Assembly: GCA_016200485.1 (NCBI GenBank)
Contig: JACQEP010000007.1
Coordinates: 48,653 to 112,652 of the forward strand
Direction: 5' to 3'
DNA length: 64,000 nt
DNA from: Gammaproteobacteria bacterium
GTDB taxonomy: Bacteria > Pseudomonadota > Gammaproteobacteria > Tenderiales > Tenderiaceae
In this document: positions 3,067 to 22,827 of the stretch, in pieces
Numbering within the stretch: position 1 is the first letter of the stretch
Layout of the letters: every line of letters starts with the position of its first letter
Notes under the pieces: model-generated
What the model was told of the DNA's origin: nothing
Database searches by the model: none
Seen by the model: the letters and a program-made list of their open reading frames with translations, nothing else
Position numbers and translations under genes: made by a program

Positions 3067-4643
3067 GAACCGTTGCTCTCGGTGAAATTTGCAAAATTGT
3101 ATCGGGCTCAACCCCTAAAAGGAATAAACCAGAATATTGGGGAGGAGAAATCCCATGGGTTACGCCTAAAGAACTTAGCAAGATGGGATCTCCATATTTG
3201 GAAGATTCCATGGAAAAAATTACTGAACTTGGCTTCAAGTCATGTTCAACAACAATGTTGCCACCTAGGTCATTGCTGCTTAGCTCTAGAGCTCCTATTG
3301 GTTTACTGGCTATAAACAAAAAGAGTGTTTGCACGAATCAAGGTTTCAAAAGCTTGGTGCCATCAGAAGAGGCTCATGTTGAATATCTCTACTACTTCTT
3401 GAAAAACAATATTGGGGCATTACAAGCAAAGGGTAACGGCGCAACTTTTAAAGAATTATCAAGGTCTTCTGTAGAAGAGTTCAAAATCCGCCTCCCACCA
3501 CTTGACGACCAAATCCGCATTGCCCATCTGCTCGGCAAAGTGGAAGGGCTGATCGCCCAGCGCAAACAACACCTGCAACAACTCGACGACCTGCTCAAAA
3601 GCGTCTTTCTGGAGATGTTTGGCGATCCGGTGCGGAATGAGAAGGGGTGGGACATTCAACCTTGCCAAAAAGCCGTATTGGATATTTCTTCAGGCACAAG
3701 TTACGGCGGTGAAGACAGGGCGTTTGTAGGTTCTGACGAAGTTGGAGTGCTGAAGATAAGTGCAGTAACAAAAGGCACATTTGATCCAGCAGAGTTTAAG
3801 GTTGTTAATCCAGCGCAGATAACGAAGACACTTCGCTTTGTTAAGCGTGGCGATTTTCTGTTTAGTCGTGCAAATACGGTCGAGCTTGTTGCTGCATGCT
3901 GCGTTGTTCCACAGGACTACGCACGGTTATTTCTGCCCGATAAGTTATGGGTTTTGACTCTCAATGCTGAGTTAGTAAATTCGCAATTCTTCAATCGCTT
4001 GCTGAAGAATGAACGCTTTCGAGATGTCGTAAGAAGCCTGGCGAGCGGCGGCCACGATTCGATGCTGAATATTTCGATGAAGAAATTTATGACTCTCGAT
4101 ATTCCATGCCCGCCGATCAATCTCCAAAATCAATTCGCCGCAATCGTTGAAAAGATCGAAGGTATCAAATCCCACTACCAACAAAGCCTCACAGAACTAG
4201 AAAACCTCTATGGTGCATTAAGCCAAAAGGCCTTCAAAGGGGAGCTAGATTTGTCGCGTGCCCCTCTGTTAGTGAAGCTGGATGTCGCCGACAACCTAAC
4301 AATGCAACTGGAAGAGAAGGCGGGCCAGAGACATGTAACTACATCCATTGATGTGGTTGATGAGTACCCCATGTCAAACCCGGCTGCCCGCGAGAGGCTG
4401 CTTCGTAGGCTGTTTGATGAGTTTATACAAGACCTGAAAAAAGGTGCCGTCTTGTCGTTAGATTACTTCTGGCAATCAGTGCACTGGAAAGCCGTGGATT
4501 TTACGCACGAAGGGGAGCAGCCCTTTGGCTCGGCGGAGTATGAGCTGGTAAAACGCTGGTTGTTTGAATCTATTAAGTCGGGGCAGTTGGAACAGGCTTT
4601 TGATGAGGATAACAACAAAATTGCGCTGAAGTTGACAGGCTGA
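3063..4643 (+). CDS. hsdS: Type I RM specificity subunit S with two target-recognition domains plus an unusual ~128-aa C-terminal extension.
   Basis: TRD1 start (GEICKIVSGSTPKRNKPEYWGGEIPWVTPKEL). Central conserved region (LPPLDDQIRIAHLLGKVEGLIAQRKQHLQQLDDLLKSVFLEMFGDP). Second conserved region (NLQNQFAAIVEKIEGIKSHYQQSLTELENLYGALSQKAFKGEL). Coding continues ~128 aa past the usual HsdS end. TRD1 (3063-3480) is visibly AT-rich relative to the conserved spacers. Confidence 0.9.
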   Translation: MRTVALGEICKIVSGSTPKRNKPEYWGGEIPWVTPKELSKMGSPYLEDSMEKITELGFKSCSTTMLPPRSLLLSSRAPIGLLAINKKSVCTNQGFKSLVPSEEAHVEYLYYFLKNNIGALQAKGNGATFKELSRSSVEEFKIRLPPLDDQIRIAHLLGKVEGLIAQRKQHLQQLDDLLKSVFLEMFGDPVRNEKGWDIQPCQKAVLDISSGTSYGGEDRAFVGSDEVGVLKISAVTKGTFDPAEFKVVNPAQITKTLRFVKRGDFLFSRANTVELVAACCVVPQDYARLFLPDKLWVLTLNAELVNSQFFNRLLKNERFRDVVRSLASGGHDSMLNISMKKFMTLDIPCPPINLQNQFAAIVEKIEGIKSHYQQSLTELENLYGALSQKAFKGELDLSRAPLLVKLDVADNLTMQLEEKAGQRHVTTSIDVVDEYPMSNPAARERLLRRLFDEFIQDLKKGAVLSLDYFWQSVHWKAVDFTHEGEQPFGSAEYELVKRWLFESIKSGQLEQAFDEDNNKIALKLTG

Positions 4644-4648
4644 TCCTG

Positions 4649-6454
4649 GTGAAACTGTTGCGGCTAAAGATCACCGATCCTGCTGGTTTCCGCAGCCTGC
4701 AGCCGGGTTTCGAGTATCTCTTCCGTACGCCCTGGGAAATCGAAAGCGAGTTGCAGGAGGGGCAGGGCTTTGCGCCTTTTGTTTGTGCTGGACCAAATGG
4801 CAGCGGTAAGTCCAATCTGCTCGAAGTTCTGGCGGCAATATTTTTTAGCATTGAAAGCCGTTATTTGGATTTTTTACCAGATCAATTTGCCGAAAACGGT
4901 GAGGAAGTCGATGTATTTACATCGACAAATACCAAGCCCGACAGCTTCGAGCTGGAATACTTGATACCTCATGAGACTAATACCAGTCCCGTCGAATTTA
5001 AGGACGCTCATGTTGTCATATCAAAAACAGCGGGAAATAGTCCAGAATTGAATTGTTTAAATAAAAGCGAGTTCGGCATTGATGAAAAGGACTCTATTTC
5101 TCGACAACAAGCCAAAAAACTATTACCGCAGTATGTTCTTGGTTGCTCTTCGGGGGAAAACGAGATATTGAGCCTGCCTTTTTTCAAGCTGCGTTTTGTC
5201 CAGTTCGATGAATATTGGAATGCGCTAAGCAACCAATTGCCTTATCCAGGTAGACCAGAAACTAGGCTTGCCTATCTCGATAGTTCCTTTAGTCAGGCGA
5301 TTTTGCTCTGCAATCTGCTCTTTCAGGATGCAGAAACGCTAATGCCATTTCGCGAAGACGTTGGCGTGGAGGAACTGAGAGAGTTTCGTATTATTATCAA
5401 GCGCAGCATCGATGTTTCCGCTGAGATTGCTGCGAAATTTGAAAGAGGAGGTTTTGCTGAAGAGGGTTATGCGCAGGGTGGATATTATGCCAGTAATCCA
5501 GCGCTTACCTTGGACGGCGAGACCGGTCGTCACACCATTAATCTCATGCGCCTGCTTGAGGCCGGTAAAGATTCCGCAGAGAATTTTGATCCAATCGTTA
5601 CACGTCTAAAACGATGTGCGACTTGCTCCTTCGTGGATGAAACAACCGATACGCTTTATCTCGATTATTACGTCAATGAAGCAACTAAAGAGGCGTTCAA
5701 AGAAAATTTCGATTATTCGCCAATAGCATTGTTTCAGGCGTTTCAGGTCTTGCTCTCACTTAATCTCTATTCCGTTAGCGATACATTGAAAAGTAACCTG
5801 TACAAATCCGATAGCCTTTATGTTGGGGAAACCGTGCCAATCTTAGCCTCTGATGAGCGCATTATGAGATTTAAGCATTTTCTGTTAAAGAAAAGGGGCG
5901 CTGAAGAATCTGTGCTTCTTAAAAGCCTATCTGATGGCGAGCATCAGCTTTTGCACATCCTTGGCCTATGTTTGTTGTTCAGAAATACCAACAGTCTATT
6001 TCTGCTCGATGAGCCGGAAACCCACTTCAACCCGGACTGGCGTTCGAACTTTATCACGCGCCTGCGCCAGTGTTTTCGCGAGTCCACAGATACCCATGAA
6101 ATGCTTGTTACGACCCATGCCCCCTTCTTAATCTCCGACAGTAAACCAGAAAAGGTACTGGTCTTTAAGAAAGACGAGGGGCTCGGAACGGTCAACATCA
6201 GCAAACCGGATTACAACACCCTGGGCGCATCGATTAACAAGATCACTATGAATACCTTCGGCAAACGGGAAACTATTGGCGGCTATGCACAGTCGATTCT
6301 TGAGGGTCTGCGTAACCGGTTTGAAGGTGGCGAGGACAAGGATCAGCTCATTAATGAGATTAATCAGCAACTGGGCGACTCGGTTGAAAAGGTACTGCTG
6401 ATCAAGACTATCCTTGATGGCATGGAGGGTGAGGGTAATGCTGTTCCCGTATAA
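4649..6454 (+). CDS. ABC/SMC-type (AAA_21/AAA_15-like) ATPase, GTG start; candidate PtuA-like defence ATPase.
   Basis: Walker A (GPNGSGKSN), ABC signature-like (LSDGEHQLLHILG), Walker B/D-loop (LFLLDEPETHFNP) and H-loop (TTHAPF). GTG at 4649 lies 5 nt after the hsdS stop. An insertion between Walker A and the signature is typical of SMC/OLD/PtuA-like ATPases. Confidence 0.85.
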   Translation: MKLLRLKITDPAGFRSLQPGFEYLFRTPWEIESELQEGQGFAPFVCAGPNGSGKSNLLEVLAAIFFSIESRYLDFLPDQFAENGEEVDVFTSTNTKPDSFELEYLIPHETNTSPVEFKDAHVVISKTAGNSPELNCLNKSEFGIDEKDSISRQQAKKLLPQYVLGCSSGENEILSLPFFKLRFVQFDEYWNALSNQLPYPGRPETRLAYLDSSFSQAILLCNLLFQDAETLMPFREDVGVEELREFRIIIKRSIDVSAEIAAKFERGGFAEEGYAQGGYYASNPALTLDGETGRHTINLMRLLEAGKDSAENFDPIVTRLKRCATCSFVDETTDTLYLDYYVNEATKEAFKENFDYSPIALFQAFQVLLSLNLYSVSDTLKSNLYKSDSLYVGETVPILASDERIMRFKHFLLKKRGAEESVLLKSLSDGEHQLLHILGLCLLFRNTNSLFLLDEPETHFNPDWRSNFITRLRQCFRESTDTHEMLVTTHAPFLISDSKPEKVLVFKKDEGLGTVNISKPDYNTLGASINKITMNTFGKRETIGGYAQSILEGLRNRFEGGEDKDQLINEINQQLGDSVEKVLLIKTILDGMEGEGNAVPV

Positions 6455-7526
6455 ATACGTTCCGCACCAGATGGAGAAGATGCAAGAGTTTATCGACTTT
6501 ATCTTTTTTGAGGTGTGGTGCAAGGCTCTTTGGGAAGAGTACGATATTTCCCTCTTCAACAGTTGCCCAGAGCTGAAAACCATGATCGAAGGTCTGTACC
6601 ACACGGAGCCCAAGGGGGCAGATTTTTTCATAAAAGGCATTCAACAGATTTTCGATCAATTCAAAGTTCTGAATTATTTTGACTTGATGCGAATGCAAAG
6701 GTGGTACGAGGCAAATAACAATATAGAAGCAGCTTGTAGTCGAAAAGGAAAGGTTAATCCTGTTAGGTATGGCTCTTTAGGAAAAAGCTTCAATGAGCGG
6801 TACCAAGGGCTGAGTAAATCGCTTCACGCGTTCTTCAAGGACCTCTATTCACCAAACTTCTTAACGCTGAAAATTATTGAAAATGCGATTGGTAATATCG
6901 ACGACCATTATCAGCACTTCGTGCAGGTAAACACTGCGGGAAAATGCCCGTTTTGCGGAATCGGTGACGTGAAGGGCGTGCATCACACCAAGCGCGAAGC
7001 CTACGACCACTATCTCCCCAAGGCGCTCTACCCGTTTAGCTCAATCAATTTCCGCAACCTTGCTCCGGCCTGCCACGAGTGCAACAGCACCTATAAGCTC
7101 AGCAAGGACCCGGTGAATACTGCCGCAGGTCGTCGCAAGGCCTTTTACCCCTACGCTGATCCTGGTTCCAATATCGAAGTGACGATTGAACTCAGCAAGC
7201 CGGATGTTGATGATCTCACTCCTGCTGATATTCAGCTTGCCTTCGGTCCGTCGGAGTTAAATGAAGAAATTGAAACATGGAAAGATGTATACGGTATCGA
7301 GGAGCGGTATCGAGGAAAGTTGTTGGAAGGAGATGGAAAAGCGTGGCTCACAGAAATTTTGGACGAATGGAAATGGAAGGAAGTGAGCAATGGCAACGAA
7401 GGGCGCTCTCCCGCTGAATACCTTCGGGCCCTAAACCGTCACGTAACAAATTCACCATTTACAGGGGCTAATTTTCTCAAAAAGGCATTTCTTGAAGCAT
7501 GTGAAAGACAAAAATTGTTTGGCTAA
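6438..7526 (+). CDS. HNH-family endonuclease with an N-terminal ~170-aa domain of unknown function; candidate PtuB-like nuclease partner of the upstream ATPase (alternative start at 6414).
   Basis: HNH zinc/catalytic motif (CPFCG...HHTKREAYDHYLPK...FRNLAPACHECN). ATG at 6438 is preceded by GGAGGGTGAGGG and overlaps the ATPase stop at 6454. The N-terminal half is AT-rich. Confidence 0.8.
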   Translation: MLFPYKYVPHQMEKMQEFIDFIFFEVWCKALWEEYDISLFNSCPELKTMIEGLYHTEPKGADFFIKGIQQIFDQFKVLNYFDLMRMQRWYEANNNIEAACSRKGKVNPVRYGSLGKSFNERYQGLSKSLHAFFKDLYSPNFLTLKIIENAIGNIDDHYQHFVQVNTAGKCPFCGIGDVKGVHHTKREAYDHYLPKALYPFSSINFRNLAPACHECNSTYKLSKDPVNTAAGRRKAFYPYADPGSNIEVTIELSKPDVDDLTPADIQLAFGPSELNEEIETWKDVYGIEERYRGKLLEGDGKAWLTEILDEWKWKEVSNGNEGRSPAEYLRALNRHVTNSPFTGANFLKKAFLEACERQKLFG

Positions 7527-8266: not shown

Positions 8267-8928
8267 GTGCTTGTTATAGCATGCTTTGGATTTCCTTTGA
8301 TTGAATGGAGGATTCGGTGCGCAAACTTCATGCCTTCACTACATAGTGCCTGGAATAAAGGAAGACTAGTTGGGCAAAAGCTACCGCTGATGCAGCTATC
8401 TGAGAATATCAGGGATCTAGCGCTCTTCAATCTAGCCATCGATAGCACAAGCTTAGAGGTTGTGACTTAGTGAGGCTAATAGTCAGTGACCTCACACATG
8501 GCTCATCAATACTTAAGTGCGCAATGATCATGCAACAGAAAACCAAGCAACCTGTTCAGTTCGAGATTACAGATCAAATCAGGAAGGCCGTATTAGGCTT
8601 GATAGCCCTTCAGTATCTGAAATACAATGACACTCTCTTCCAAAGTCGTTTTCATCAATCACCTCATATCTATACCCGACAATCCGCCAGGATGGTCGGG
8701 TAATGGGTAAATGATATCGGACTAGACCCTGCGGATTACGGCGCTCACTCTATAAGAAGAACCAAGGTCTCGTTGATCTATCGGCAAACCCACAACTTGA
8801 GAGCATCCAGCTACTCCTCGGTCACACCAGATTGGAAAGTACTGTTAGGTATCTTTAGATATCTTGGTATAGAGGTAGATGATACCCTGGAAATATCAGA
8901 ACGGATGGAAATATAGCCATCCATCCCC
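8267..8928 (+). pseudogene. Tyrosine recombinase/phage-type integrase remnant (catalytic domain only), disrupted by frameshifts, an in-frame stop and a ~10-bp duplication.
   Basis: Integrase-like peptides in three frames: AWNKGRLVGQKLPLMQLSENIRDLALFNLAIDSTSLEVV | LIVSDLTHG...QPVQFEITDQIRKAVLGLIAL..FQSRFHQSPHIYTRQSARMVG stop(TAA 8701) | DIGLDPADYGAHSIRRTKVSLIYRQTHNLRA | IQLLLGHTRLESTVRYL stop | GIEVDDTLEISERMEI. The N-terminal arm/core-binding domains are absent. Confidence 0.8.
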
Positions 8929-8960
8929 CACACCTAGAAGCATTTTACACTTAAAAGTAA

Positions 8961-8988
8961 GGGAGCAGGACAGCCTGCTCCCTTTTAT
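8961..8988. terminator. Bidirectional rho-independent terminator (GGGAGCAGG-acagc-CTGCTCCC flanked by A-run/T-run).
   Basis: Perfect 9-bp stem with AAAAG upstream and TTTTAT downstream. Lies between the integrase remnant (+) and the 3' end of the minus-strand gene 8990..9334. Confidence 0.7.
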
Positions 8989-8989
8989 A

Positions 8990-9334
8990 CTATTCGCCAG
9001 TGTAATTGGCAGCGATGTAGTTGCCATCCGGAGTATAGAATAGATATAAAGTTTGCTTGGAGGCGTCACTCACTTTCTCATTCTTGAATATCACCACCCA
9101 TTCAGGGCCGTCTGCAAAGGTCTTTTGTTCTACCGAAGCGGGTTGAATTCCAGACCAGGACGCATCAATTTTTCCGGCCGTTGCCAGTTGTTCAACTTTT
9201 TGCATTGCCTTGCCAGAGGTCACATCCGCAGAAACGGGCCCATGAGAATGGCCGTGATCGTGCCCTGATCCTGCATATATTGGGTTTGCAAAAAACAAGA
9301 ACAGTGAAACTAGTGTAGAAATTAGATAACGCAT
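8990..9334 (-). CDS. Secreted His-rich putative metal-binding periplasmic protein (114 aa).
   Basis: Start MRYLISTLVSLFLFFANPIYA (signal peptide) preceded by GGAGGA. GSGHDHGHSHGP His-rich motif. The longer ORF-track start (9409) is upstream of the RBS and is rejected. Confidence 0.6.
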   Translation of the reverse strand: MRYLISTLVSLFLFFANPIYAGSGHDHGHSHGPVSADVTSGKAMQKVEQLATAGKIDASWSGIQPASVEQKTFADGPEWVVIFKNEKVSDASKQTLYLFYTPDGNYIAANYTGE

Positions 9335-9350
9335 AAATCCTCCAGGTCTA

Positions 9351-9485
9351 TTAATTGATGGTGTCATGTTGATTTGTTTGATCATGTGAGTGCCCATTAC
9401 CATGGGCATGGCCGTCTTCTGATGAGCATGCAGAAAATAGCGTTAAACTTGAACAGGTGAATATTATCAAAACTAACTTGTGCAT
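9351..9485 (-). CDS. 44-aa His-rich lipoprotein-like peptide (MHKLVLIIFTCSSLTLFSACSSEDGHAHGNGHSHDQTNQHDTIN), absent from the ORF track.
   Basis: GGAGGT RBS 6 nt upstream of the ATG. Lipobox-like LFSAC. Same GHxHGxGHSH motif as the downstream gene, and tandem with it. Confidence 0.45.
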   Translation of the reverse strand: MHKLVLIIFTCSSLTLFSACSSEDGHAHGNGHSHDQTNQHDTIN

Positions 9486-9501
9486 TATTTACCTCCTATC
9501 G

Positions 9502-10692
9502 TTAATCAATGCTTTCATGTCTTGCCTGGAGTTTTGGAGCTGGTTCGTTAATTACCTTATTTTTATCCACTAGCTGATATTCGCCATTTACTTTTAGCGA
9601 AATGGTGATAGGTGTGTGGGTGTTGTTTTTCCAATACCAACCATGTGTACCTGCAAATGTAGAGGTTAAAGAGCCGCTTGACTGGCTTTCCGTACTCTTG
9701 TGGAAGCTTTTGAAATAGCCGGTGGTATCGCCTGCGGGTTCACCATGAAAATCATAAAACAGTGGCTCGCCATCTGTTCGCCATGAATAGTTAAACGTCG
9801 CACCTTTGGCTAGAAAGAGTTTGTACTCCTTATCACCTCTGGCAGGTATCGTGACAGCGATGGAATCTTTCCACTCTGTAGACTCCATGCTTGCAAGGCC
9901 TCCTTGCACGGCAGTAGATTGCGCGGAGGCTTCTTTACTTGCGCCTAGCTCTTTATTGATGGTGTGCTCATAACCATGCATTTGCATGAAAAATAGGTAA
10001 ATTCCCATGGCTATCAAGGCATAGTTTGCAATCAGGCTGAACGCTTTGAAACCATGGGTTTTACGCCATGCCGCAATCAGCAATAACATCAGGAACAGCG
10101 CGCTGATTTGTCCCAGTTCGATGCCTATGTTGAACGAAATAATATTCAGTAACAGTCCGTCTTCGCTTAGCGGCAGTTCCTGCAAACGCGTGGATAAGCC
10201 AAAACCATGGATCAGCCCAAGCCCAATGATCATCAGCATCATGTTAGGTGGGTTAATACCAAGATATTTACGAAAGCCGTCAATGTTAGCGAAAGCGATA
10301 TAACACACACTGAGCGCAATCACTGCATCAATGAGGAAGTAGTTAAGCTGAATCGCGTTAAATGTGGCGAAAATCAGCGTGACACTGTGCCCCAGTGTAA
10401 ACGCGGTCACGTATTTGGCAATATCCCGAAAGGTGGTTAGGAAGAAGATGATCCCGAAGACAAACGCAAGATGGTCGTAGCCGGAAAGCATGTGTGTAGC
10501 GCCTAGCCACAAATACTGCACGTTACCACCGTCGATGATTGCCTGTTTTTCCGCTCCAGACATACCATGAGCAAAGGCAAGATTGGAAAACAATGCAAAC
10601 AGCACGAGCCCGGTGATTAGAATAAACAGATTTCGTTTGACTAACATGGCTTGATTATTCTGGGGTAATGAGATTGCTTTGCTGCTAATCAC
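9502..10692 (-). CDS. HupE/UreJ-family (Ni/Co) membrane transporter fused to a ~140-aa C-terminal soluble domain.
   Basis: HupE/UreJ signature HMLSGYDHLAFVFGIIFF. Multiple TM segments over ~250 aa, followed by a hydrophilic tail (KELGASKEASAQ...WKNNTHTPITISLKVNGEYQLV). Confidence 0.7.
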   Translation of the reverse strand: MISSKAISLPQNNQAMLVKRNLFILITGLVLFALFSNLAFAHGMSGAEKQAIIDGGNVQYLWLGATHMLSGYDHLAFVFGIIFFLTTFRDIAKYVTAFTLGHSVTLIFATFNAIQLNYFLIDAVIALSVCYIAFANIDGFRKYLGINPPNMMLMIIGLGLIHGFGLSTRLQELPLSEDGLLLNIISFNIGIELGQISALFLMLLLIAAWRKTHGFKAFSLIANYALIAMGIYLFFMQMHGYEHTINKELGASKEASAQSTAVQGGLASMESTEWKDSIAVTIPARGDKEYKLFLAKGATFNYSWRTDGEPLFYDFHGEPAGDTTGYFKSFHKSTESQSSGSLTSTFAGTHGWYWKNNTHTPITISLKVNGEYQLVDKNKVINEPAPKLQARHESID

Positions 10693-10997
10693 AGGCGACC
10701 TCCTTTTTCGGCAGCTGTTACCCAGTAAACGCCATGTCCCGTGAGATTGGCTTGCGCCTCACTAAGCTTTGCCAATACAGCATTTACATCAGTATCCTCA
10801 AGTAAAATATCTGTCCGTATACGTGGGGCATAGCCAACCACGTTATCGTGTGCAGTTATAAAAGGGTCGCTTTCCACTTCTACACCATGACCTTCGACGT
10901 GGCTAAAGGTAAAGCCTGAGACCTGATCAATAGTGCGTAATAAATCAGCCAGTTGTTGCTGAACGTTCGTATGAACAATAAGCGTTAATACTTTCAT
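10689..10997 (-). CDS. Small P-II-fold/DUF3240-like protein of the kind found beside cation-efflux genes.
   Basis: 102 aa. MKVLTLIVHTNVQQQLADLL...GHGV pattern. 4-nt overlap with the HupE/UreJ gene. The family assignment is from memory. Confidence 0.5.
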   Translation of the reverse strand: MKVLTLIVHTNVQQQLADLLRTIDQVSGFTFSHVEGHGVEVESDPFITAHDNVVGYAPRIRTDILLEDTDVNAVLAKLSEAQANLTGHGVYWVTAAEKGGRL

Positions 10998-11141
10998 GCG
11001 TATTCCTCTGCAATGAATCGAATCTTTAGGGTTGCCAGTGCACCAGAAATCGGCTGCATTACTGGCTTAAATTTATGTCGCATGGATACGGTCGGCTCGA
11101 GTCTAAGTCGAGCGAGCATCAATACATTGATAGAGAAACGC

Positions 11142-11558
11142 TTAAAGTGGTGGTGCGCGAAGCGGTGGGATTAGATGAAATCGACGGGGAAGGCTAACGT
11201 TGCCACGATTTATAGGAAATTTATTTCGATATAGCCCAGGTACGGGCAGGAACAGCACGATGCCTATTAAGGCTGCCATCAGTAGATTGCTAGCTACCTG
11301 TTTTAAGCAGTCCGGGCATGCATCAATCACTGTTGTTGTTTCATCATGGTGATCCTGATGGGAGCTGTCTAAAGAAAGGTGAGCCCCACCAATGTGAGAG
11401 TGTCCATTGATATTGTCGATTGAGTGATGACCTTGATGCGAGTCATGATCAAAGCTGTGGACATGTAGAGTTACGCCTTGAGCTGACAGCATTAGCAATG
11501 AAAGCAATACTGTCCACGCAATCAATATTCTCTTATCTATTTTACGAAAAAAATCCAT
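11142..11558 (-). CDS. His-rich secreted/membrane-anchored putative metal-binding protein (DUF2946-like?).
   Basis: N-terminal signal/TM. HVHSFDHDSHQGHHSIDNINGHSHIGGAH...HQDHHDE. CPDC motif. C-terminal hydrophobic segment. Confidence 0.5.
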   Translation of the reverse strand: MDFFRKIDKRILIAWTVLLSLLMLSAQGVTLHVHSFDHDSHQGHHSIDNINGHSHIGGAHLSLDSSHQDHHDETTTVIDACPDCLKQVASNLLMAALIGIVLFLPVPGLYRNKFPINRGNVSLPRRFHLIPPLRAPPL

Positions 11559-11665
11559 CGTGGCAGTCTAGCAACTTAAGTGTCCAAGTGTAAATCGGAT
11601 ATTATTTGATCCAATTCGACAATAAGGAAAAATTCTTTATTTTGACAAGCCTTATTCATGTGTAC

Positions 11666-11941
11666 TTATTTGAGATAGGAGCGTAACACTGCCACAACCT
11701 GCTCCAGATCCTCATTGCGCTGCTGAGGCGTCACACCCTCAGCGCCTAGATGCTCCCTGAGATGCCCCTCCAGCACTTCAGTCATGAGGCCATTTACCGC
11801 ACCACGAATCGCCGCAATCTGCTGAAGAATCGCCACACATTCTTTATCTTGTTCCAGGGCCTTTTCTAAGGCCTCTGTCTGCCCTTTGATGCGGCGTAAT
11901 CGGGTCAGCAGTTGTTTCTTACCTTCAATCGTATGCGACAT
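11666..11941 (-). CDS. RcnR/FrmR/CsoR-family metal-sensing transcriptional repressor (DmeR-like), 91 aa.
   Basis: N-terminus MSHTIEGKKQLLTRLRRIKGQTEALEKAL matches the RcnR/FrmR family. Divergent to a CDF transporter. The longer ORF-track start is rejected. Confidence 0.8.
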   Translation of the reverse strand: MSHTIEGKKQLLTRLRRIKGQTEALEKALEQDKECVAILQQIAAIRGAVNGLMTEVLEGHLREHLGAEGVTPQQRNEDLEQVVAVLRSYLK

Positions 11942-11962
11942 GGTTTCTCTTTCTAAGAGAGG

Positions 11963-11981
11963 TATACTGAGGTATAGTATA
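11963..11981. promoter_or_regulatory. Candidate RcnR/DmeR operator: inverted repeat TATACT-N7-AGTATA in the divergent intergenic region.
   Basis: tatactgaggtatagtata contains TACT-N7-AGTA, resembling the E. coli RcnR site consensus TACT-G6-N-AGTA. An adjacent direct repeat GAGGTATA x2 is present. Confidence 0.5.
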
Positions 11982-12011
11982 TGCCAATATGAATCAAGTA
12001 GACAAATTTCG

Positions 12012-12974
12012 ATGATCCCCCCCAAAACAGACAACGACTGGAATCACTCTCACGTATTTGATGAGGGCAATCCACTGGCGGAAAGAAATACCCGCTGGGC
12101 GGTGATTCTGACGGCAATCATGATGGTGGTCGAAATCGCTGGCGGCTGGGTATTTAACTCAATGGCATTATTGGCCGACGGTTGGCACATGAGTTCACAC
12201 GCTCTGGCACTGGGTCTCTCTGTGGCAGCCTATGTCGCCGCCCGGCGCTTTGCCCATGATGGCCGATTTGCGTTTGGCACCTGGAAAATTGAGGTTCTGG
12301 GCAGCTATACCAGCGCAATCCTGCTCATTGGTGTTGCCGGACTGATGCTTTACCAGTCGGTAGAACGACTCATGGCGCCGTCCCCTATCCACTACGATCA
12401 AGCGATTTTCGTTGCCATCCTAGGCTTATTGGTCAATCTCGCCTGTGCTTGGCTACTCAATGACGGACATGCGCATCATGATCATGACCTTGATCACGGA
12501 CACCATCATGACCTGAACCTGCGCGCTGCCTATCTCCACGTACTTGCCGATGCAGCAACCTCCGTCCTGGCTATTTTGGCGTTGATCGGTGGTAAATTAT
12601 GGGGAGCTAGCTGGCTTGATCCCGCAATGGGCATCGTTGGTGCGGTGTTGGTTACGGTATGGGCTTATGGGCTGTTACACGACGCAGGGCGAGTGCTGCT
12701 CGATGCAGAAATGAATGCCCCCGTGGTCAATGAAATTCGTGACGTGATCGACGCCTGCCCCTCCGATGCACATATCTGCGACCTTCATGTGTGGCGTGTC
12801 GGCAAGGGTAAATACGCCTGCATCCTATCGCTTATCGTTAATGCCGATTCTAACGATGATGCGGAATATTACCAAAAGCAGTTGGGCATTCACGAGGAGC
12901 TTGTTCATATCACTGTGGAAATAAAGAACCAACAAAAACCTGTTGATCTTGAAGCTGAAATTGCACCAGCTTAA
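12012..12974 (+). CDS. Cation diffusion facilitator (CDF) family Co/Ni/Zn efflux transporter (DmeF/CzcD-like).
   Basis: MIPPKTDNDWNHSHVF...WAVILTAIMMVVEIAGG. His-rich cytoplasmic loop (HAHHDHDLDHGHHHDLN) followed by LRAAYLHVLADAATSV. Start chosen at 12012 rather than the ORF-track 11886. Confidence 0.85.
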   Translation: MIPPKTDNDWNHSHVFDEGNPLAERNTRWAVILTAIMMVVEIAGGWVFNSMALLADGWHMSSHALALGLSVAAYVAARRFAHDGRFAFGTWKIEVLGSYTSAILLIGVAGLMLYQSVERLMAPSPIHYDQAIFVAILGLLVNLACAWLLNDGHAHHDHDLDHGHHHDLNLRAAYLHVLADAATSVLAILALIGGKLWGASWLDPAMGIVGAVLVTVWAYGLLHDAGRVLLDAEMNAPVVNEIRDVIDACPSDAHICDLHVWRVGKGKYACILSLIVNADSNDDAEYYQKQLGIHEELVHITVEIKNQQKPVDLEAEIAPA

Positions 12975-13203
12975 ACACATAAGTGGCGCAATATAGCTTG
13001 GACAAGAGCCCGAAGAGGAATAAGGGAATGTCTGCTATCGCGATTCCTGCCGTTCGCTCCATAGTAGACATTCGCTAACTCCACTTTCAAAGGCAGCAAA
13101 GGGTCGTTCTGAGTCATTAAAAATTCAAGCGAATCCGACGTTCTCTGTTATATCAAGCACCATATCTTCCTGTCACCAAATGCGGATACCTGGGGAAGGG
13201 TGA

Positions 13204-13641: not shown

Positions 13642-13881
13642 TTAGTGTTTCCGATCCATTGGAGGACTTGGATCTTTACCGTAGCTGTCGCTGTCGCGTA
13701 TCTGGCCATTTTGGCGATGAATGACAACTTCTGCGTGCTCCCGTTTAGCCTGATCACGGGCGCGATCAATAGCTTCGCGCTGCGTATCGTGCTTTGACCC
13801 AGCCCGGTCGGCCCCTTCTTTTTTGGTCGCCCATCCGCCGTCTTTATGCGGTACAACATGTATGTCACGTTTCTTGCTCAT
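13642..13881 (-). CDS. DUF2188 domain-containing small protein.
   Basis: HVVPHKDGGWATKKEGADRAGSKHDTQREAIDRARDQAKREHAEVVIHRQNGQIRDSDSYGKDPSPP matches the DUF2188 pattern, recognised from memory. Confidence 0.7.
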   Translation of the reverse strand: MSKKRDIHVVPHKDGGWATKKEGADRAGSKHDTQREAIDRARDQAKREHAEVVIHRQNGQIRDSDSYGKDPSPPMDRKH

Positions 13882-13898
13882 ATCAGACCTCTTTTCAT

Positions 13899-14162
13899 TT
13901 AGCAGTTAGCCAAGTCATCCAGATTGTTGCGGGACGTGTTGTCCTTGTCCGTGCGCAGATATTTCCCCCTTGGTCCGTTAACCACGCGGATCGGAGTCTT
14001 TGTGCCATCGCTCCATGGGACATGGTACTGATGTGCCCTGGTTTCAATATCCCGGATCGCATCCGCCTTGTCACGGGGAGACCAAAATTCGCCGTGATTA
14101 CACAGACCGGTAATGTCGCCATCGCGATCCTTCCTGCTTCGGGTTACAGCTCTTATTGCCAT
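13899..14162 (-). CDS. DUF3892 domain-containing small protein.
   Basis: ITGLCNHGEFWSPRDKADAIRDIETRAHQYHV...RVVNGPRGKYLRTDKDNTSRNNLDDL matches the DUF3892 pattern, recognised from memory. Confidence 0.65.
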   Translation of the reverse strand: MAIRAVTRSRKDRDGDITGLCNHGEFWSPRDKADAIRDIETRAHQYHVPWSDGTKTPIRVVNGPRGKYLRTDKDNTSRNNLDDLANC

Positions 14163-14305
14163 GTGAGCACCTCATTTCAGTTGATTAAAAATAAATGTAA
14201 TGTAAAATACTACGATTCCGTATAGACCATGGGTCTAAAAAACGCCTAGCGCGTATATACGAAGGCGTATTTTATTAATATACTCTAACGTATAGAGGTT
14301 GTGCA

Positions 14306-14641
14306 ATGGTAAATGATGATGTTTTTCCGCAAAGACTCGTGGCTGCCCGCAAGAAGCGGGAACTCAGCCAGGATGATCTGGCCCAGAGGTCAGGGCTACA
14401 ACCCGCTGCGGTATCTCACTTTGAAACGGGAGCACGCAAGCCCTCTTTTGATAATCTGCGTCGGTTGGCAGATGCACTCAACGTAACCGCCGATTACTTA
14501 CTCGGCCGTACAGACGATCCCGAAGGGTTTGCCGAAGCGGACGTGGCTTTTCGGCACGGCTTTGAAAAGCTATCTTCAGACCAGAGGGAGATAGCTCTGG
14601 ACTTTATTCAGGTGTTGGCCAAGAGAAACAAGAAAGAATAG
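14306..14641 (+). CDS. XRE-family helix-turn-helix transcriptional regulator.
   Basis: LVAARKKRELSQDDLAQRSGLQPAAVSHFETGARKPSFDNLRRLADALNVTADYLLG is a Cro/C1-type HTH. Confidence 0.85.
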   Translation: MVNDDVFPQRLVAARKKRELSQDDLAQRSGLQPAAVSHFETGARKPSFDNLRRLADALNVTADYLLGRTDDPEGFAEADVAFRHGFEKLSSDQREIALDFIQVLAKRNKKE

Positions 14642-14653
14642 GAGCCACCTGAG

Positions 14654-15511
14654 ATGGATCCCTTTGCCACGAGAGAAGCTGAGCGGCTCCTGAAGGAGTG
14701 GGGAGTTACATCTCTTCCGGTCAATCCGGTTGCCATTGCTGTGCAGCATGACATTGTTTGTCAGGCCATGCCATCGCAGAATGGCGGGGTGTCGGGAATG
14801 TTGATAAAAAACAAGCGGGCGTTTGGTATTCTTTACGCCACCCATATAGAAAACGAGGGCTTCCAGCGTTTCAGTGTCGCGCACGAGCTGGGGCATTATT
14901 TTTTACCCGGCCATCCCGAAGCGGTGTTCGCAGGCGGCGTTATCCACGAATCACGGGCTGGATTTGTCTCTGACGATACATATGAAAGTGAGGCTGATCA
15001 TTTTGCCAGCGGCTTGCTTATGCCGAATTTTTTGTTCGATCCCGTATTAGATCGTGCCGGGGAAGGGATGGAAGTGGTTAAAACGCTGAAGCAGCTCTGT
15101 GGTACGTCTCTGGTGGCCACGGCTATCCGTTATGCTCAGAGAACGCCGGCGCCCGCCGCGATTGTAGTGAGCATAGGTGATAAGGTGGATTACTGCTTCA
15201 TGTCGGATGATCTGAAGGAATATCCGGGACTGGCCTGGCTCAAAAAAGGGATGGGCGTTCCGCGCGGCACAAAAACGCACACTTTCAACAGAGATGTGGA
15301 TAATGTGCGTCTTGCCAGAGAAGATGCAGATTCCATCAGCTTGGCGACATGGTTTGGTAGTAGAATAAAAGGTGAGCTGTATGAAGAAGTCATCGGTCTT
15401 GGCAGATATGGCAAGACATTGACTGTACTTTCCGCATCCGATCTGCCTGATCTTGAGGAGATCGAAGAGGATGAAGAACTTGAGGATTCATGGGCGATTC
15501 GCTTCAGATAA
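14654..15511 (+). CDS. ImmA/IrrE-family (DUF955) zinc metallopeptidase with an acidic C-terminal tail.
   Basis: HEXXH motif in FSVAHELGHYFLPGH. Immediately downstream of the XRE gene with a 12-nt gap. Tail DLPDLEEIEEDEELEDS. Confidence 0.8.
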   Translation: MDPFATREAERLLKEWGVTSLPVNPVAIAVQHDIVCQAMPSQNGGVSGMLIKNKRAFGILYATHIENEGFQRFSVAHELGHYFLPGHPEAVFAGGVIHESRAGFVSDDTYESEADHFASGLLMPNFLFDPVLDRAGEGMEVVKTLKQLCGTSLVATAIRYAQRTPAPAAIVVSIGDKVDYCFMSDDLKEYPGLAWLKKGMGVPRGTKTHTFNRDVDNVRLAREDADSISLATWFGSRIKGELYEEVIGLGRYGKTLTVLSASDLPDLEEIEEDEELEDSWAIRFR

Positions 15512-18121: not shown

Positions 18122-20668
18122 TCAGCGAGTAAATGCCTTGCCATGCTGGCAATAAAACCAGCGCTTAACAACTTCGACGGCTATCAGATAACACACTACC
18201 ATGGCAATAAGGAAGGCAAAAAACTCGAGTGGTAGCGGTACAAAACCAAACCAATGGCCGAGCGGTAAATAGGGGAGTATGATTGCGCACGCGATAACAG
18301 CGAGCGATGCGAGAATCAGGAGTCGGCTGGGTTGGCTCTGCAATGGGTTGTGGCGGGTACGGATGATGAAGATCACCAGCACCTGTGAGGCGATGGATTC
18401 GATAAACCATCCGGTACGAAATAGTGCTTCGCCTGCGCTGAATACGCTGAGCATAATGTAGAACGTTAGGAAGTCGAATACGGAACTCACTGGGCCGATG
18501 GTGAGCATGAAGTTGCGGATGAAATTCATGTTCCATTGCCGCGGCGTGGCAAGATAGTCGTCATCGACCTTATCCATGGGAATCGCCACTTCCGAGAGAT
18601 CATACATAAGATTATTGAGCAGAATTTGCACTGGCAACATGGGCAGGAATGGTAGTAGCACGGTAGCGCCGGCCATGCTGAACATGTTACCGAAACTGGA
18701 GCTGGTGCCCATCATGATGTATTTCATGATGTTGCCGAAAGTGCGGCGGCCTTCGCGTACGCCGTCGTGCAATACCTGGAGATCGGATTTGAGCATGATC
18801 ATGTCGGCGGCGTCTTTGGCCACATCCACTGCGCTGTCAACTGAGATGCCGATGTCGGCGGATTTCAGTGCCGGCGCGTCATTGATGCCGTCGCCGAGGT
18901 AGCCCACGACATGGCGGCGCGCCTGTAATGCCTGAATGATCCGATTTTTCTGCGCCGGGTTGACACGGCAGAAGAGATTCACATTATCCAATTTTGCCCA
19001 CAGTGCCTCATCGTTTAGCAGCTGTAGGTCGTTTCCGGTAAGTACGCCCGTGATCTCTACACCTAGCTGAGTGCAAATATGGCGCGTGACCAGTTCATTG
19101 TCACCGGTAACGATCTTGACTGCGATGCCGCTGGCCGTCAGTGCTTGTAATGCTGGCCCGGCGCTGGCTTTGGGTGGATCGAGAAAGGCGGCGAAGCCAG
19201 CAAACACCAGTTCAGTTTCGTCATCTACCACGGCATGCGGATGGTCAGCCGCTACCTTGCGCCACGCAATCCCAAGCACGCGAAAGCCTTCGCGGGCGAG
19301 GTCGTCGTTGAGGGTTTGTACGCGGGTGAGCGCGTCGCCATCAAGCGGGCGTAGATCTTCGGCGGAGTCGCCTTCGTAGTGTGTCGACAACCGCAGAATA
19401 TCTTCTGGTGCTCCTTTGACCACTAACAGTCGTTGCCCATCACTCTCTACAAGCACAGAGATCCTGCGCCGCTCAAAATCGAATTGAACTTCATCGATCT
19501 TATGCCACGCACTGATATCGATTTCCTGATGCGCGAGAATGGCATCATCCAGCGGACTGCGCAGGCCCGATTCGAAAAAACTGTTCAGATAGGCGAGCTG
19601 CAGCACACGCTCACTTTCAACACCGGAAGGATTGACATGGCGTTCGAGACGGATGCGCGCCTCTGTCAGCGTGCCGGTCTTGTCGGTACACAACACGTCC
19701 ATGCTGCCCAGATCTTGAATGGAGGACAGGCGTTTGACGATGACCTGCTGTCGTGACATGCGTATCGCGCCTCGCGACAGCGTGACCGAGACCACCATCG
19801 GCAAAAGTTCTGGCGTCAGCCCGACGGCGAGTGCGACAGCGAACAAGAAAGTCTCCAGCCAGGGGCGATGAAACAGCGAGTTGACCAGTAGCACGAACAA
19901 CACCAGCAAGATAGTCAAACGCATAATGAGCAAGCCGAATTGCCGAGTGCCGCGTTCAAATGAGGTCGGTGTACCGTTGGTAGTGAGACTGTCGGCAATT
20001 TCCCCCAGGGCGGTGGCCGGGCCCGTTCGGCAAACCAGTACTCGCGCATTGCCACTGATGACCGAGGTGCCCATGAATACGGCGTGAGTGGCTGAACTCA
20101 TATCACTCGCCGGTACAACGCCAGTGCGCTTTTCCACAGGATAAGGTTCGCCAGTCAACAACGCTTGATTGATGAAAAAATCTTTGGCCTCCAGCACTAC
20201 GCAGTCGGCAGGCACTAGATCGCCGGCGACCAGCGCCACGACATCTCCTGGCACAATTTTGGCAACGGGAGTTTCTTGAGGTTTTCCGTCGCGCAACACG
20301 CTTGCATGCACGGCGACGGATGCCTTTAAACCTTCAGCCGCCTTGCCCGCGCGGTGCTCCTGGATAAAATCGAGCGTTACACTCATCAACACCATAAAGG
20401 TGATGATAAAAAAGCTGGTTTGGTCGCCAGTCACCGCCGAAACGGCGCTGGCGGCCAACAGTAACAATACCAGCGGATTGCGAAAGCGTGATAGAAACTG
20501 AAGAATCAGCGCTCGCTCATGATGCAGACTGGGTGTGTTGGGGCCATATTGCGCAAAGCGCATATCAGCCTGCGCTGTCGTTAGGCCCGCGGGGGAAGCG
20601 TCAAGCGAGCGATATAATTCGCTGATTGATGCTTGCCAAAATGCAGAGGTTGAAGTGGGTTGTGTCAT
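18122..20668 (-). CDS. mgtA: Magnesium-translocating P-type ATPase.
   Basis: 848 aa. Phosphorylation motif CTDKTGTLT. GDGINDAPALKSADIGISV hinge. MgtA-type N-terminus and 10 TM layout. Confidence 0.88.
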   Translation of the reverse strand: MTQPTSTSAFWQASISELYRSLDASPAGLTTAQADMRFAQYGPNTPSLHHERALILQFLSRFRNPLVLLLLAASAVSAVTGDQTSFFIITFMVLMSVTLDFIQEHRAGKAAEGLKASVAVHASVLRDGKPQETPVAKIVPGDVVALVAGDLVPADCVVLEAKDFFINQALLTGEPYPVEKRTGVVPASDMSSATHAVFMGTSVISGNARVLVCRTGPATALGEIADSLTTNGTPTSFERGTRQFGLLIMRLTILLVLFVLLVNSLFHRPWLETFLFAVALAVGLTPELLPMVVSVTLSRGAIRMSRQQVIVKRLSSIQDLGSMDVLCTDKTGTLTEARIRLERHVNPSGVESERVLQLAYLNSFFESGLRSPLDDAILAHQEIDISAWHKIDEVQFDFERRRISVLVESDGQRLLVVKGAPEDILRLSTHYEGDSAEDLRPLDGDALTRVQTLNDDLAREGFRVLGIAWRKVAADHPHAVVDDETELVFAGFAAFLDPPKASAGPALQALTASGIAVKIVTGDNELVTRHICTQLGVEITGVLTGNDLQLLNDEALWAKLDNVNLFCRVNPAQKNRIIQALQARRHVVGYLGDGINDAPALKSADIGISVDSAVDVAKDAADMIMLKSDLQVLHDGVREGRRTFGNIMKYIMMGTSSSFGNMFSMAGATVLLPFLPMLPVQILLNNLMYDLSEVAIPMDKVDDDYLATPRQWNMNFIRNFMLTIGPVSSVFDFLTFYIMLSVFSAGEALFRTGWFIESIASQVLVIFIIRTRHNPLQSQPSRLLILASLAVIACAIILPYLPLGHWFGFVPLPLEFFAFLIAMVVCYLIAVEVVKRWFYCQHGKAFTR

Positions 20669-22817: not shown

Positions 22818-22827
22818 GAGGATTGTC

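Follow-up and report, generated by a model that had tools for sequence, protein, structure and literature searches.

Is the cluster of metal-related genes at positions 8,990 to 12,974 of a contig from a Gammaproteobacteria bacterium of the family Tenderiaceae one resistance module, and if not, what are its parts and how are they controlled? We addressed this question in a stretch of 64,000 nucleotides (nt) from assembly GCA_016200485.1 (contig JACQEP010000007.1), referred to here as the window. A first-pass annotation, made from the letters alone, had read the islet as a single horizontally acquired module for resistance to Ni/Co (or Zn/Cu), and every feature that it had listed was found where it had been placed or within a few bases of there. 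Our preferred explanation, held with moderate confidence, is that the islet is a composite of two adjacent and independent divalent-metal modules. Module 1 (11666-12974) is a DmeRF-type divergon, that is, ordinary and already known biology. Module 2 (11594 to 8959, minus strand) is a foreign, lower-GC operon of five genes with its own promoter, which is uncharacterized and widespread; it appears to be headed by a nascent-peptide leader and would serve metal tolerance.

The seven genes of the islet were identified by listing open reading frames (ORFs) and by direct reading, followed by Pfam and NCBIfam scans, and signal peptides, the lipobox, and transmembrane segments of the window proteins were judged by inspection. 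The features of Module 2, in the order in which they would be transcribed, are as follows.

11565-11594, minus strand: sigma-70-like promoter from a consensus scan (TTTACA, 18-nt spacer, (TG)TAGACT), ending 6 nt before the leader ATG at 11558
11142-11558, minus strand: DUF2946 (CruR/CutF-type) leader, 138 amino acids (PF11162, 25.4 bits against a cutoff of 23.7, residues 14-137)
10998-11141, minus strand: leader-DUF3240 spacer of 144 nt
10689-10997, minus strand: DUF3240/P-II-like protein, 102 amino acids (PF11582, 54.5 bits, and PF00543, 30.8 bits, both above cutoff)
9502-10692, minus strand: HupE_UreJ_2 membrane protein, 396 amino acids (PF13795, 169.7 bits against a cutoff of 24.5, residues 60-212)
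9577-9870, minus strand: GOLD-like eight-stranded beta-sandwich, residues ∼275-372 of that protein (AlphaFold2, predicted local distance difference test [pLDDT] ∼97, from a 53-sequence alignment)
9505-9519, minus strand: its C-terminal tail HESID (T-H-D-[ST]-I-D in relatives, sometimes followed by SL)
9351-9485, minus strand: predicted mini-lipoprotein, 44 amino acids (AGGAGGT 5 nt before the ATG; lipobox-like LFSA/C)
8990-9334, minus strand: DUF6488 protein, 114 amino acids (PF20098, 82.3 bits against a cutoff of 27, full length; GGAGGA 4 nt before the ATG)
8959-8984, minus strand: intrinsic-terminator-like hairpin (11-bp stem with 7 G-C pairs, 4-nt loop, T-rich tail)

The hairpin (8984 to 8959) lies just past the DUF6488 stop codon and is likely the end of the five-gene operon.

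To place the operon among its relatives, we scanned one genome per species for the HupE fusion protein, which gave 373 loci with a full-length relative, and compared the best 80 of these species-level loci (labeled L001 and so on), with neighbors identified by tblastn and ORF clustering. These relatives, from at least 373 species-level genomes, come mostly from marine, sediment, and vent Gammaproteobacteria and from Zetaproteobacteria, and they include the cultured Shewanella sp. KX20019. The conserved cassette was found in all 80 sampled loci: a DUF6488 gene follows the HupE gene in 58 to 60 of them, a DUF3240 gene directly precedes it in 35 to 40, and at least 43 have a DUF2946-type ORF upstream. 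An RcnR gene, in turn, adjoins the cassette in only 1 of the 80 loci and a DmeF-like cation diffusion facilitator (CDF) gene in 3 to 4. The GC content differs as well, being 0.522 for both rcnR and dmeF, 0.518 for the whole window, and 0.385 to 0.465 for the five-gene operon, which makes the operon the compositionally foreign part of the islet. The rarity of RcnR and DmeF beside the cassette, together with this contrast, suggests that the two modules have separate histories, and the idea of one resistance module had to be abandoned.

The first gene of the operon holds the key to its probable regulation. It had been described in the first-pass annotation as another His-rich protein with a CPDC motif; the protein and the motif are present, but the gene appears to encode a RAPP arrest-peptide leader that regulates the genes downstream, and thus to be the key regulatory element. 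Its predicted signal peptide (about residues 11 to 27, with the n-region RKIDKR, a 14-residue h-region, and SAQ/G) is followed by a His-rich segment, by CPDC at residues 81 to 84 (nt 11318 to 11307), and by a second hydrophobic segment at residues 92 to 109, which ends 29 residues ahead of the putative arrest site. The C terminus reads ...IPPLRAPPL, with RAPP at residues 134 to 137 (nt 11159 to 11148), 1 residue from the end. RAPP-terminated ORFs occur in the window and in 44 of the 80 loci, and all except one of them lie upstream of the HupE gene. In an alignment of 20 leaders with identities down to 19%, the invariant columns are M1, H32, H34, H53, D64, H67, and R134-A135-P136-P137; RAPP is invariant even among leaders of 19 to 30% identity, and CxxC is present in 5 of the 20. 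Force-profile work on arrest peptides indicates that membrane insertion at such a distance could pull on an arrested chain, which for the segment at residues 92 to 109 is a lead only.

A metal motif and a C-terminal RAPP are the defining features of the DUF2946 family (PMC9426467). In Bordetella CruR, RAPP-dependent arrest connects the sensing of copper with Rho-dependent termination ahead of the next gene (PMC9426467), and this arrest has been demonstrated in vitro, where the two Pro codons occupied the P and A sites (PMC12992588). In Rhodobacter CutF, stalling that is prolonged by copper opens a stem-loop masking the Shine-Dalgarno sequence of the next gene (PMC9973294; bioRxiv 2025.02.05.636593). 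Like CruR (Bp2923 of Bordetella pertussis) and CutF (of Rhodobacter capsulatus), the window leader is a DUF2946 protein of fewer than 150 amino acids with an N-terminal signal peptide (predicted here), encoded by the first gene of a metal operon, and by the criteria of PMC9973294 (fewer than 150 amino acids, first in the operon, a same-strand downstream gene within 1,000 nt, here after the 144-nt spacer) it counts among such leaders. Its RAPP falls within the last 15 residues, where such leaders carry RAPP or another proline-rich motif, and is exactly that of CruR, in which it lies 3 residues from the end. Unlike those proteins, the window subfamily conserves His and Asp ligands rather than the CxxC of CruR or the CxxxC of CutF, the leader has a second hydrophobic segment and an apparently leaderless mRNA, and the genes downstream encode DUF3240 and HupE_UreJ_2 proteins rather than a TonB-dependent receptor or a multicopper oxidase. 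CutF-like clusters that have only His-rich motifs and neighbor HupE/UreJ genes have been proposed to sense Ni or Co (PMC9973294), and the window leader belongs to this uncharacterized branch.

The position of the promoter gives a second distinguishing trait. The −10 box is the only block conserved upstream of the leader in the aligned relatives. With leader start codons picked heuristically, a caveat on these counts, a TANNNT element ending 4 to 10 nt before the leader ATG was found in 33 of 39 loci (17 of them also with a −35-like element), compared with 1 of 44 starts of downstream genes, 13% of all ORF starts, and 11% of random positions; on the same basis a Shine-Dalgarno sequence precedes none of the 39 leader starts, compared with 41 of the 44 downstream genes. 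Since the −10 box of the window ends only 6 nt before the ATG, the leader mRNA is probably leaderless, and a −10 box in this place shows that the operon has a promoter of its own, independent of rcnR. No NiCo or other riboswitch was found in this region, as an Rfam scan of positions 8700 to 13200 at an E value of ≤1 matched no family.

How would such a leader control the genes behind it? We favor arrest-dependent control, in which the leader would be translated from its probably leaderless mRNA and its His/Asp-rich N-terminal segment (here with CPDC) exported cotranslationally, until RAPP halts the ribosome two codons before the end of the leader. Metal bound to the exported segment would then alter the duration of the arrest. 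The arrested ribosome might melt a helix that starts one base past the stop codon and so expose the DUF3240 gene's ribosome-binding site, in the way of CutF and SecM, or it might shield a C-rich Rho-loading site at the leader's 3′ end, in the way of CruR; Shine-Dalgarno unmasking, Rho attenuation, or both would set the expression of the downstream genes.

Both routes find matching features in the window. Immediately after the leader stop codon, the 17 nt of GCGUUUCUCUAUCAAUG (11141 to 11125) can pair with CAUUGCAGAGGAAUACGC (11015 to 10998), which holds the DUF3240 Shine-Dalgarno sequence and ends at its ATG, and the minimum-free-energy fold of the region pairs the two arms. This duplex (−19.5 kcal/mol, z = −3.96) is matched by 1 of 200 shuffles, which makes the window a strong outlier, and, as in CutF, the helix can mask the Shine-Dalgarno sequence of the next gene. 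From the geometry, a ribosome halted with Pro136 in its P site would sit over the base of the helix. The second route is suggested by the composition of the last ∼90 nt of the leader ORFs, which contain 30.7% C and 14.2% G, with C exceeding G in 45 of 45 loci, compared with an average C-minus-G value of −1.2 points in downstream genes (P = 6e-14 versus the leader ends). The spacer that follows is 143 to 153 nt long in 11 loci, the window included. A C-rich, G-poor stretch and a spacer are the features that Roy and colleagues tied to a Rho-loading site; in CruR, the stretch likewise precedes a spacer of ∼150 nt.

The genes that follow the leader encode proteins of the cytoplasm, the inner membrane, and the periplasm. 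The DUF3240 protein, which scores 19.9 bits against the NCBIfam P-II model (cutoff, 181), has no signal peptide and is presumably cytoplasmic. Its stop codon overlaps the GTG start of the HupE gene (GTGA). The HupE protein, whose membrane core is highly conserved, has a predicted signal peptide that would be cleaved ahead of an invariant H42-G-M-S, and it carries the motif HX5DH as H67-MLSGY-D73-H74, each position of which is at least 95% conserved in an 81-sequence alignment. HX5DH in the first transmembrane segment is the signature of HupE. By inspection, about six hydrophobic segments follow the cleaved signal peptide, which should place the C terminus in the periplasm. In its signal peptide, mature N-terminal His, HX5DH motif, and approximately six transmembrane segments, the protein resembles the HupE/UreJ Ni/Co permeases, such as HupE of Rhizobium leguminosarum. 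It differs from them in belonging to a separate Pfam family, HupE_UreJ_2, with only 19.2 bits for PF04955 (cutoff, 23), in carrying a periplasmic GOLD-like sandwich and a conserved C-terminal tail, and in its linkage, which is to efflux pumps, DUF3240, and DUF6488 and not to genes for hydrogenase or urease. The first-pass annotation had called it a HupE/UreJ Ni/Co transporter; the family holds through the PF13795 match, but a role as a Ni/Co importer is not established, given that in 20 of the 80 loci and in Shewanella the gene stands at the 3′ end of an efflux operon.

Behind the PF13795 region the HupE protein continues for ∼160 residues, and the unusual C-terminal domain that had been suspected here is genuine. 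That this extension is a separate gene joined by mistake was rejected, because full-length relatives of 61 to 81% identity occur in 80 of 80 loci and the region is modeled at a pLDDT of ∼97. A domain search gave no Pfam GOLD match, with only a subthreshold APD1-4_N hit for residues 240 to 396, and Foldseek against the Protein Data Bank (PDB) placed the GOLD domains of p24/TMED proteins at the top, with E values of ∼8e-6. As sequence identity to these is 9 to 17%, we claim a resemblance of fold to GOLD only, not common ancestry. GOLD domains bind peptides or ligands. In contrast to the known ones (p24/TMED, Sec14-like, and ACBD3), this sandwich is bacterial and has a periplasmic setting. Its invariant residues are E289, K291, W304, D314, H316, H350, W352, W354, and N356, of which D314, H316, and H350 form a candidate metal site.

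The sandwich is mobile and occurs in three arrangements. It is fused to HupE in the window; in Shewanella sp. KX20019 it is a membrane-anchored protein of 171 amino acids encoded between a 232-amino-acid HupE_UreJ_2 protein and DUF6488, in a split set that ends an operon of OEP, CzcB, and CusA/CzcA genes; and in the third it is inserted between the lipobox/His-rich N terminus and the body of DUF6488, beside a HupE_UreJ_2 protein of 256 amino acids. In a model of one such natural DUF6488 fusion (pLDDT, 86), a helix and a four-stranded sheet come after the sandwich and correspond to the DUF6488 body. That HupE, the sandwich, and DUF6488 are always adjacent and alternatively fused argues for one periplasm-facing complex. 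Two further variants were seen among the sampled loci. In a Thalassolituus metagenome-assembled genome (MAG) (L047, 6001-7074), the HupE fusion ends in ...KVKGDYIAANNSGK, a DUF6488 C terminus, and no separate DUF6488 gene follows; this ending looks like a deletion that joined the end of the sandwich to the last DUF6488 strand. In L033, one of the two loci with the C-terminal tail and without DUF6488, a partial second copy of the sandwich (7123-7431, query residues 274 to 376, 69% identity) comes right after the full gene.

The fourth gene, the 44-amino-acid ORF, had been proposed as a peptide missed by gene calling, and it is indeed uncalled, like the DUF2946 gene, on a public Logan contig that bears the same block. 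Besides its lipobox, it has the His motif DGHAHGNGHSHD (GHAHGNGHSH) and the C-terminal tail QHDTIN. Among the 60 loci with both HupE and DUF6488 genes, the gap between the two is bimodal (7 to 91 nt in 38 loci and 113 to 246 nt in 22), and homologous ORFs of 31 to 63 amino acids are present in 18 of the 22 larger gaps; of the 19 that exceed 130 nt, 17 contain one. These homologues share a signal peptide, the motif D-H-G-H-S-H-D, and a C-terminal x-H-D-[STN]-I-[DNE]; 16 of 19 have Cys at the lipobox position, and all 19 have a Shine-Dalgarno sequence. The candidate lipobox of the window peptide, F-S-A-C, has F at position −3 relative to the pattern [LVI][ASTVI][GAS]C, into which most homologues fit strictly by inspection. 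The ratio of nonsynonymous to synonymous differences per site (pN/pS) was 0.18 to 0.95 over the pairs listed (pS, 0.05 to 0.75), and 0.32 for the window versus L001. Recurrence, conserved ribosome-binding sites, and pN/pS values below 1 indicate that the ORF is a genuine, conserved gene for a small predicted lipoprotein under purifying selection. The peptide had no Pfam match and only NCBIfam matches far below cutoff, a word-indexed protein search returned nothing, and an exhaustive phmmer search of 1.84 billion representative proteins gave only four true relatives, of 44 to 56 amino acids. By the sorting rule of Escherichia coli, Ser at position +2 after the lipid-modified Cys directs a lipoprotein to the outer membrane, and this would apply to the mini-lipoprotein.

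The last gene product, DUF6488, has a Sec signal peptide, a mature form that opens with GSGHDHGHSHG, and a body that, from the fusion model, consists of a helix and a four-stranded sheet; it is 100% identical to the protein HY272_03725 of a Gammaproteobacteria MAG. The first-pass annotation had seen the mini-lipoprotein and DUF6488 as a duplicated pair of peptides. This is true of one half: the N terminus of the mini-lipoprotein, with its signal peptide and His motif, is DUF6488-like, but its C terminus, HDTIN, resembles the transporter tail HESID, so that it is not a simple DUF6488 duplicate. A tandem duplication of the junction between the 3′ end of hupE and the 5′ end of duf6488 would yield exactly such a chimera.

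The shared tail goes together with DUF6488. Tail and downstream DUF6488 are both present in 58 loci, both absent in 13, and found as tail only in 2 and as DUF6488 only in none (Fisher P = 1.2e-12, with loci treated as independent and phylogeny ignored, which tempers the weight of this association), and even the 256-amino-acid HupE without the sandwich carries the tail. We infer that DUF6488 may recognize the tail of HupE and of the mini-lipoprotein or share a metal site with it. In the scheme that we propose, HupE_UreJ_2 would sit in the inner membrane with its sandwich and its THD[ST]ID-type tail in the periplasm, the mini-lipoprotein would present the same tail along with a His motif, and the periplasmic, His-tipped DUF6488 would recognize the tail of both, the three forming a periplasm-facing complex that handles metal.

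Beyond DUF6488, some relatives have extra genes that the window lacks (for example, L047 7323-7673, L068 8214-8660, L021 3193-3678, and L038 7690-8736). The recurrent ones encode a multipass membrane protein of 116 amino acids (11 loci), a secreted protein of 148 amino acids with a C-terminal CxxCH-like CVSCH (5 loci), a lipoprotein of 161 amino acids (4 loci), and an EamA transporter with a very His-rich tail (4 loci); those other than EamA had no Pfam match.

As to what Module 2 does, we lean toward a role in resistance or efflux support, in which it would help the cell, alongside efflux pumps, to tolerate a divalent metal from the Ni/Co/Zn class. In 20 of the 80 loci (counted as independent, phylogeny ignored) the cassette directly follows OEP, adaptor, and CusA/CzcA-type resistance-nodulation-division (RND) genes, and this CzcCBA-type pump upstream favors divalent-metal resistance. 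The pump passes the CusA/CzcA family cutoff (1,092 versus 701 bits), and the adaptor, which has Pfam CzcB domains, is nearest to the divalent-metal types IhpB and CzcB/NccB; in at least one locus, L043, the entire RND-HupE operon opens with a DUF2946 leader. The DmeRF neighbor in the window and the use of His and Asp ligands instead of Cys or Met point the same way. The cassette is thus placed as a 3′ extension of such operons, comparable to czc-type efflux operons with accessory genes (CzcI leader-like, CzcD). It differs from these in that the window has no RND pump in the region examined and in that HupE_UreJ_2 takes the place of a CDF protein or a P-type ATPase as the accessory inner-membrane protein. 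No paper connecting HupE/UreJ with czcA came up in a literature search for the two.

Several results weigh against parts of this explanation. HupE/UreJ proteins are classically importers, which fits uptake better than resistance. A consensus scan between rcnR and the leader found no terminator, so the two modules may be transcriptionally coupled by read-through in this genome. With regard to the leader, the distance from CPDC to RAPP is 49 residues, compared with 45 ± 2 in PMC9426467, and the C-over-G bias at its 3′ end is partly imposed by Pro, Arg, and Ala codons. The spacer helix does not extend to the family: RNAalifold on 12 leader-DUF3240 spacers returned no consensus structure, Shine-Dalgarno occlusion in 39 loci was 0.65, versus 0.69 in dinucleotide-shuffled spacers (P = 0.2), and arms paired barely better within loci than across loci (P = 0.018 and 0.054). 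With only marginal within-locus pairing, no consensus structure, and no excess of occlusion, a CutF-type stem-loop is not put forward as a feature of the family. Finally, the split version in Shewanella lacks the tail and keeps a divergent DUF6488, so docking through the tail is not universal.

The alternative that fares best, which we still consider unlikely, is that Module 2 serves high-affinity uptake of Ni, Co, or Zn, with HupE_UreJ_2 as the importer and the His-tipped periplasmic proteins as the carriers that deliver the metal; as in CruR, metal would relieve the arrest and thereby switch the operon off. Members of the HupE/UreJ family are known as Ni/Co importers, conservation extends to the HX5DH motif, and His-rich periplasmic carriers are typical of uptake systems. 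The C-rich, G-poor bubble and the spacer of 143 to 153 nt in 11 loci also suit the CruR mode, and CruR itself sets the precedent of a DUF2946 leader that acts through Rho-dependent attenuation of an uptake operon (PMC9426467). An importer would, however, be futile where the gene closes a CusA/CzcA-type efflux operon, as it does in 20 of the 80 loci and in Shewanella; the Ni/Co exporter DmeF stands beside the cassette in the window and in 3 to 4 other loci, and there are no urease, hydrogenase, or cobalamin genes nearby.

Less probable again, and in our judgment improbable, is a copper-specific system like CruR or CutF, in which Cu would be bound by CPDC and by the His at the mature N terminus of the transporter. 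The CPDC motif of the window leader and the copper-centered literature on DUF2946 speak for it, and the invariant HGMS at the mature N terminus of HupE could form a Cu(II) site resembling a His brace. Yet the invariant ligands of the leaders are His and Asp, with CxxC in only one-quarter of those aligned, the RND adaptor is of the divalent CzcB/NccB/IhpB type and not CusB-like, and the His-only, HupE-linked clusters have been separated as probably not Cu specific (PMC9973294). That the DUF2946 product is instead a stable membrane or periplasmic metal-binding component, in an operon regulated only at transcription (for example, by read-through from the RcnR-controlled promoter), is very improbable. 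In its favor, the protein is long for a leader, at 138 amino acids, and contains two hydrophobic segments, the consensus scan placed no terminator between rcnR and the leader, and neither RNAalifold nor the occlusion test gave a family-wide regulatory RNA structure. Against it, RAPP, 1 to 8 (mostly 1 to 3) residues from the C terminus, is the sole invariant block among very divergent homologues, a −10 box abutting the ATG shows in 33 of 39 loci that the leader has a promoter to itself, only 1 locus of 80 has RcnR next to the cassette, and the mature CruR and CutF proteins are undetectable (PMC9426467, PMC9973294).

For arrest-dependent control of a tolerance operon, the sequences show gene identities, conserved motifs, shuffling of domains, statistical co-occurrence, and the geometry of the promoter; the arrest as such, a response to metal, the choice of metal, the direction of transport, and docking of the tail are inferences. 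A bolder form of this reading, which we offer tentatively, is that the operon encodes the first nascent-peptide metal sensor that is not for copper, a leaderless His/Asp RAPP leader that would read periplasmic Ni, Co, or Zn, and that this leader would control a previously unrecognized machine of inner membrane and periplasm, in which the transporter and a chimeric mini-lipoprotein born by junction duplication would compete for DUF6488, or pass metal to it, through the shared THD[ST]ID tail. To date, a nascent exported peptide has been shown to sense metal only in the case of copper (CruR and CutF), and this operon family is a tractable His-based variant in which its extension to Ni, Co, or Zn could be tested, and which could show how RAPP arrest works together with a leaderless mRNA and a second hydrophobic segment. 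The operon itself, a new and uncharacterized variant of arrest-peptide-controlled metal operons, is touched upon in the literature only bioinformatically (PMC9973294); its leaderless geometry, mobile GOLD-like domain, and shared tail appear to be undescribed, although no literature search was aimed at them. It places DUF2946, DUF3240, DUF6488, and the GOLD-like sandwich, four domains whose function is unknown, in a context, reveals a conserved family of predicted lipoproteins of 31 to 63 amino acids that escaped the single public gene call examined, and offers the C-terminal tail motif as a candidate signal for protein-protein contact or metal hand-off.

Module 1, in comparison, could be assigned to a known type, and the earlier description of an RcnR/CDF pair with its operator held up as a Ni/Co efflux divergon, on the basis of the H-C-H-H fingerprint, the DmeF equivalog match, and a sole TACT-N7-AGTA site. 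Its features are the following.

11666-11941, minus strand: RcnR/DmeR-type repressor, 91 amino acids (PF02583, 88.6 bits)
11963-11981, no strand assigned: candidate RcnR/DmeR operator TATACT-GAGGTAT-AGTATA, a palindrome with 6-bp arms in the 70-bp divergent spacer
12012-12974, plus strand: DmeF-type CDF exporter of Co(II)/Ni(II), 320 amino acids (NCBIfam NF033827, 347.3 bits against a cutoff of 250; PF01545, 126 bits)

On reading of its sequence, the repressor has the fingerprint H3-C35-H60-H64 together with E34, E63, and an N-terminal MSH, and these residues match the Ni/Co ligand set of RcnR/DmeR (PMC7055735). It stays below the NCBIfam equivalog cutoffs for RcnR (106.8 versus 138 bits) and FrmR (117.7 versus 133 bits). 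The exporter has a His-rich loop, HAHHDHDLDHGHHHD. TACT-N7-AGTA at 11965-11979 is the sole match in the 64-kb window, with 0.18 expected by chance, and it overlaps the −10-like TATACT of the rcnR promoter. Control of the five-gene operon by RcnR through a second operator was not supported, since the window has no other such site. The site conserved between rcnR and dmeF reads TACTG(A/G)GGTATAGTA, and an independent RcnR/DmeF divergon in L065, whose repressor is 51% identical, has TACTGGGGTATAGTA in its spacer, on the opposite strand and with one base changed; this near-identical site supports the operator assignment. The same TACT-N7-AGTA pattern was seen at L035 9002-9016, L047 8564-8578, and L073 10600-10614, none of them near an RcnR gene seen in the fetched stretches; the one in L047 is immediately ahead of a second set of OEP/adaptor efflux genes.

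The repressor would sit on TATACT-N7-AGTATA until binding of Ni(II) or Co(II) frees transcription of rcnR and dmeF, and DmeF would export Co/Ni from the cytoplasm. Module 1 shares H-C-H-H with E34 and E63, the DmeF equivalog, and an AT-rich TACT-N7-AGTA repeat with DmeRF of Rhizobium, Agrobacterium, and Sinorhizobium and with RcnR-RcnA of E. coli. It differs from DmeRF in that its genes are divergent, whereas dmeRF has been described as an operon, and from E. coli RcnR in that the operator spacer, GAGGTAT, lacks the G6 tract of the TACT-G6-N-AGTA type and in the scores below the RcnR and FrmR equivalog cutoffs.

The metal-homeostasis block lies, as had been noted, beside an integrase scar, and the operon is surrounded by mobile and defense features: an integrase remnant, type I restriction-modification and Septu-like genes, and a pair of helix-turn-helix (HTH) and M78-peptidase genes. 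A megablast search of plasmids with positions 8900 to 13000 gave no match. The feature next to the operon is listed here.

8267-8916, plus strand: frameshifted tyrosine-recombinase (integrase) remnant, from a frame-corrected piece compared with Phage_integrase

The three raw fragments of this remnant had no Pfam match, and the frame-corrected GAHSIRRT...IQLLLGHTRLESTVRYL scored 25.0 bits (E = 1.9e-5), under the cutoff of 27.1. Upstream of the islet, a defense island on the plus strand (1405-7523) encodes HsdM (1405-3063), HsdS (3063-4640), and a Septu-like pair, namely, a PtuA-type AAA ATPase (4649-6451; PADLOC PtuA, 163.6 bits) and a protein of 370 amino acids (6414-7523) that matches the PDC-M01B and PtuB models. 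On the other flank, small genes of mobile-element type (13642-15508) encode DUF2188 (13881-13645, minus) and DUF3892 (14162-13902, minus) proteins, an HTH_3 regulator (14306-14641), and an M78/ImmA-IrrE peptidase (14654-15508). Farther away, a P-type ATPase of 848 amino acids (18125-20668, minus) has Cation_ATPase_N and Cation_ATPase_C domains, which we take to mark a Ca/Mg/Na-type and not a heavy-metal P1B enzyme, so that it probably falls outside the metal-resistance theme, and two tandem genes at 22269-23331 (plus) encode Slp-family outer membrane lipoproteins of 182 and 168 amino acids.

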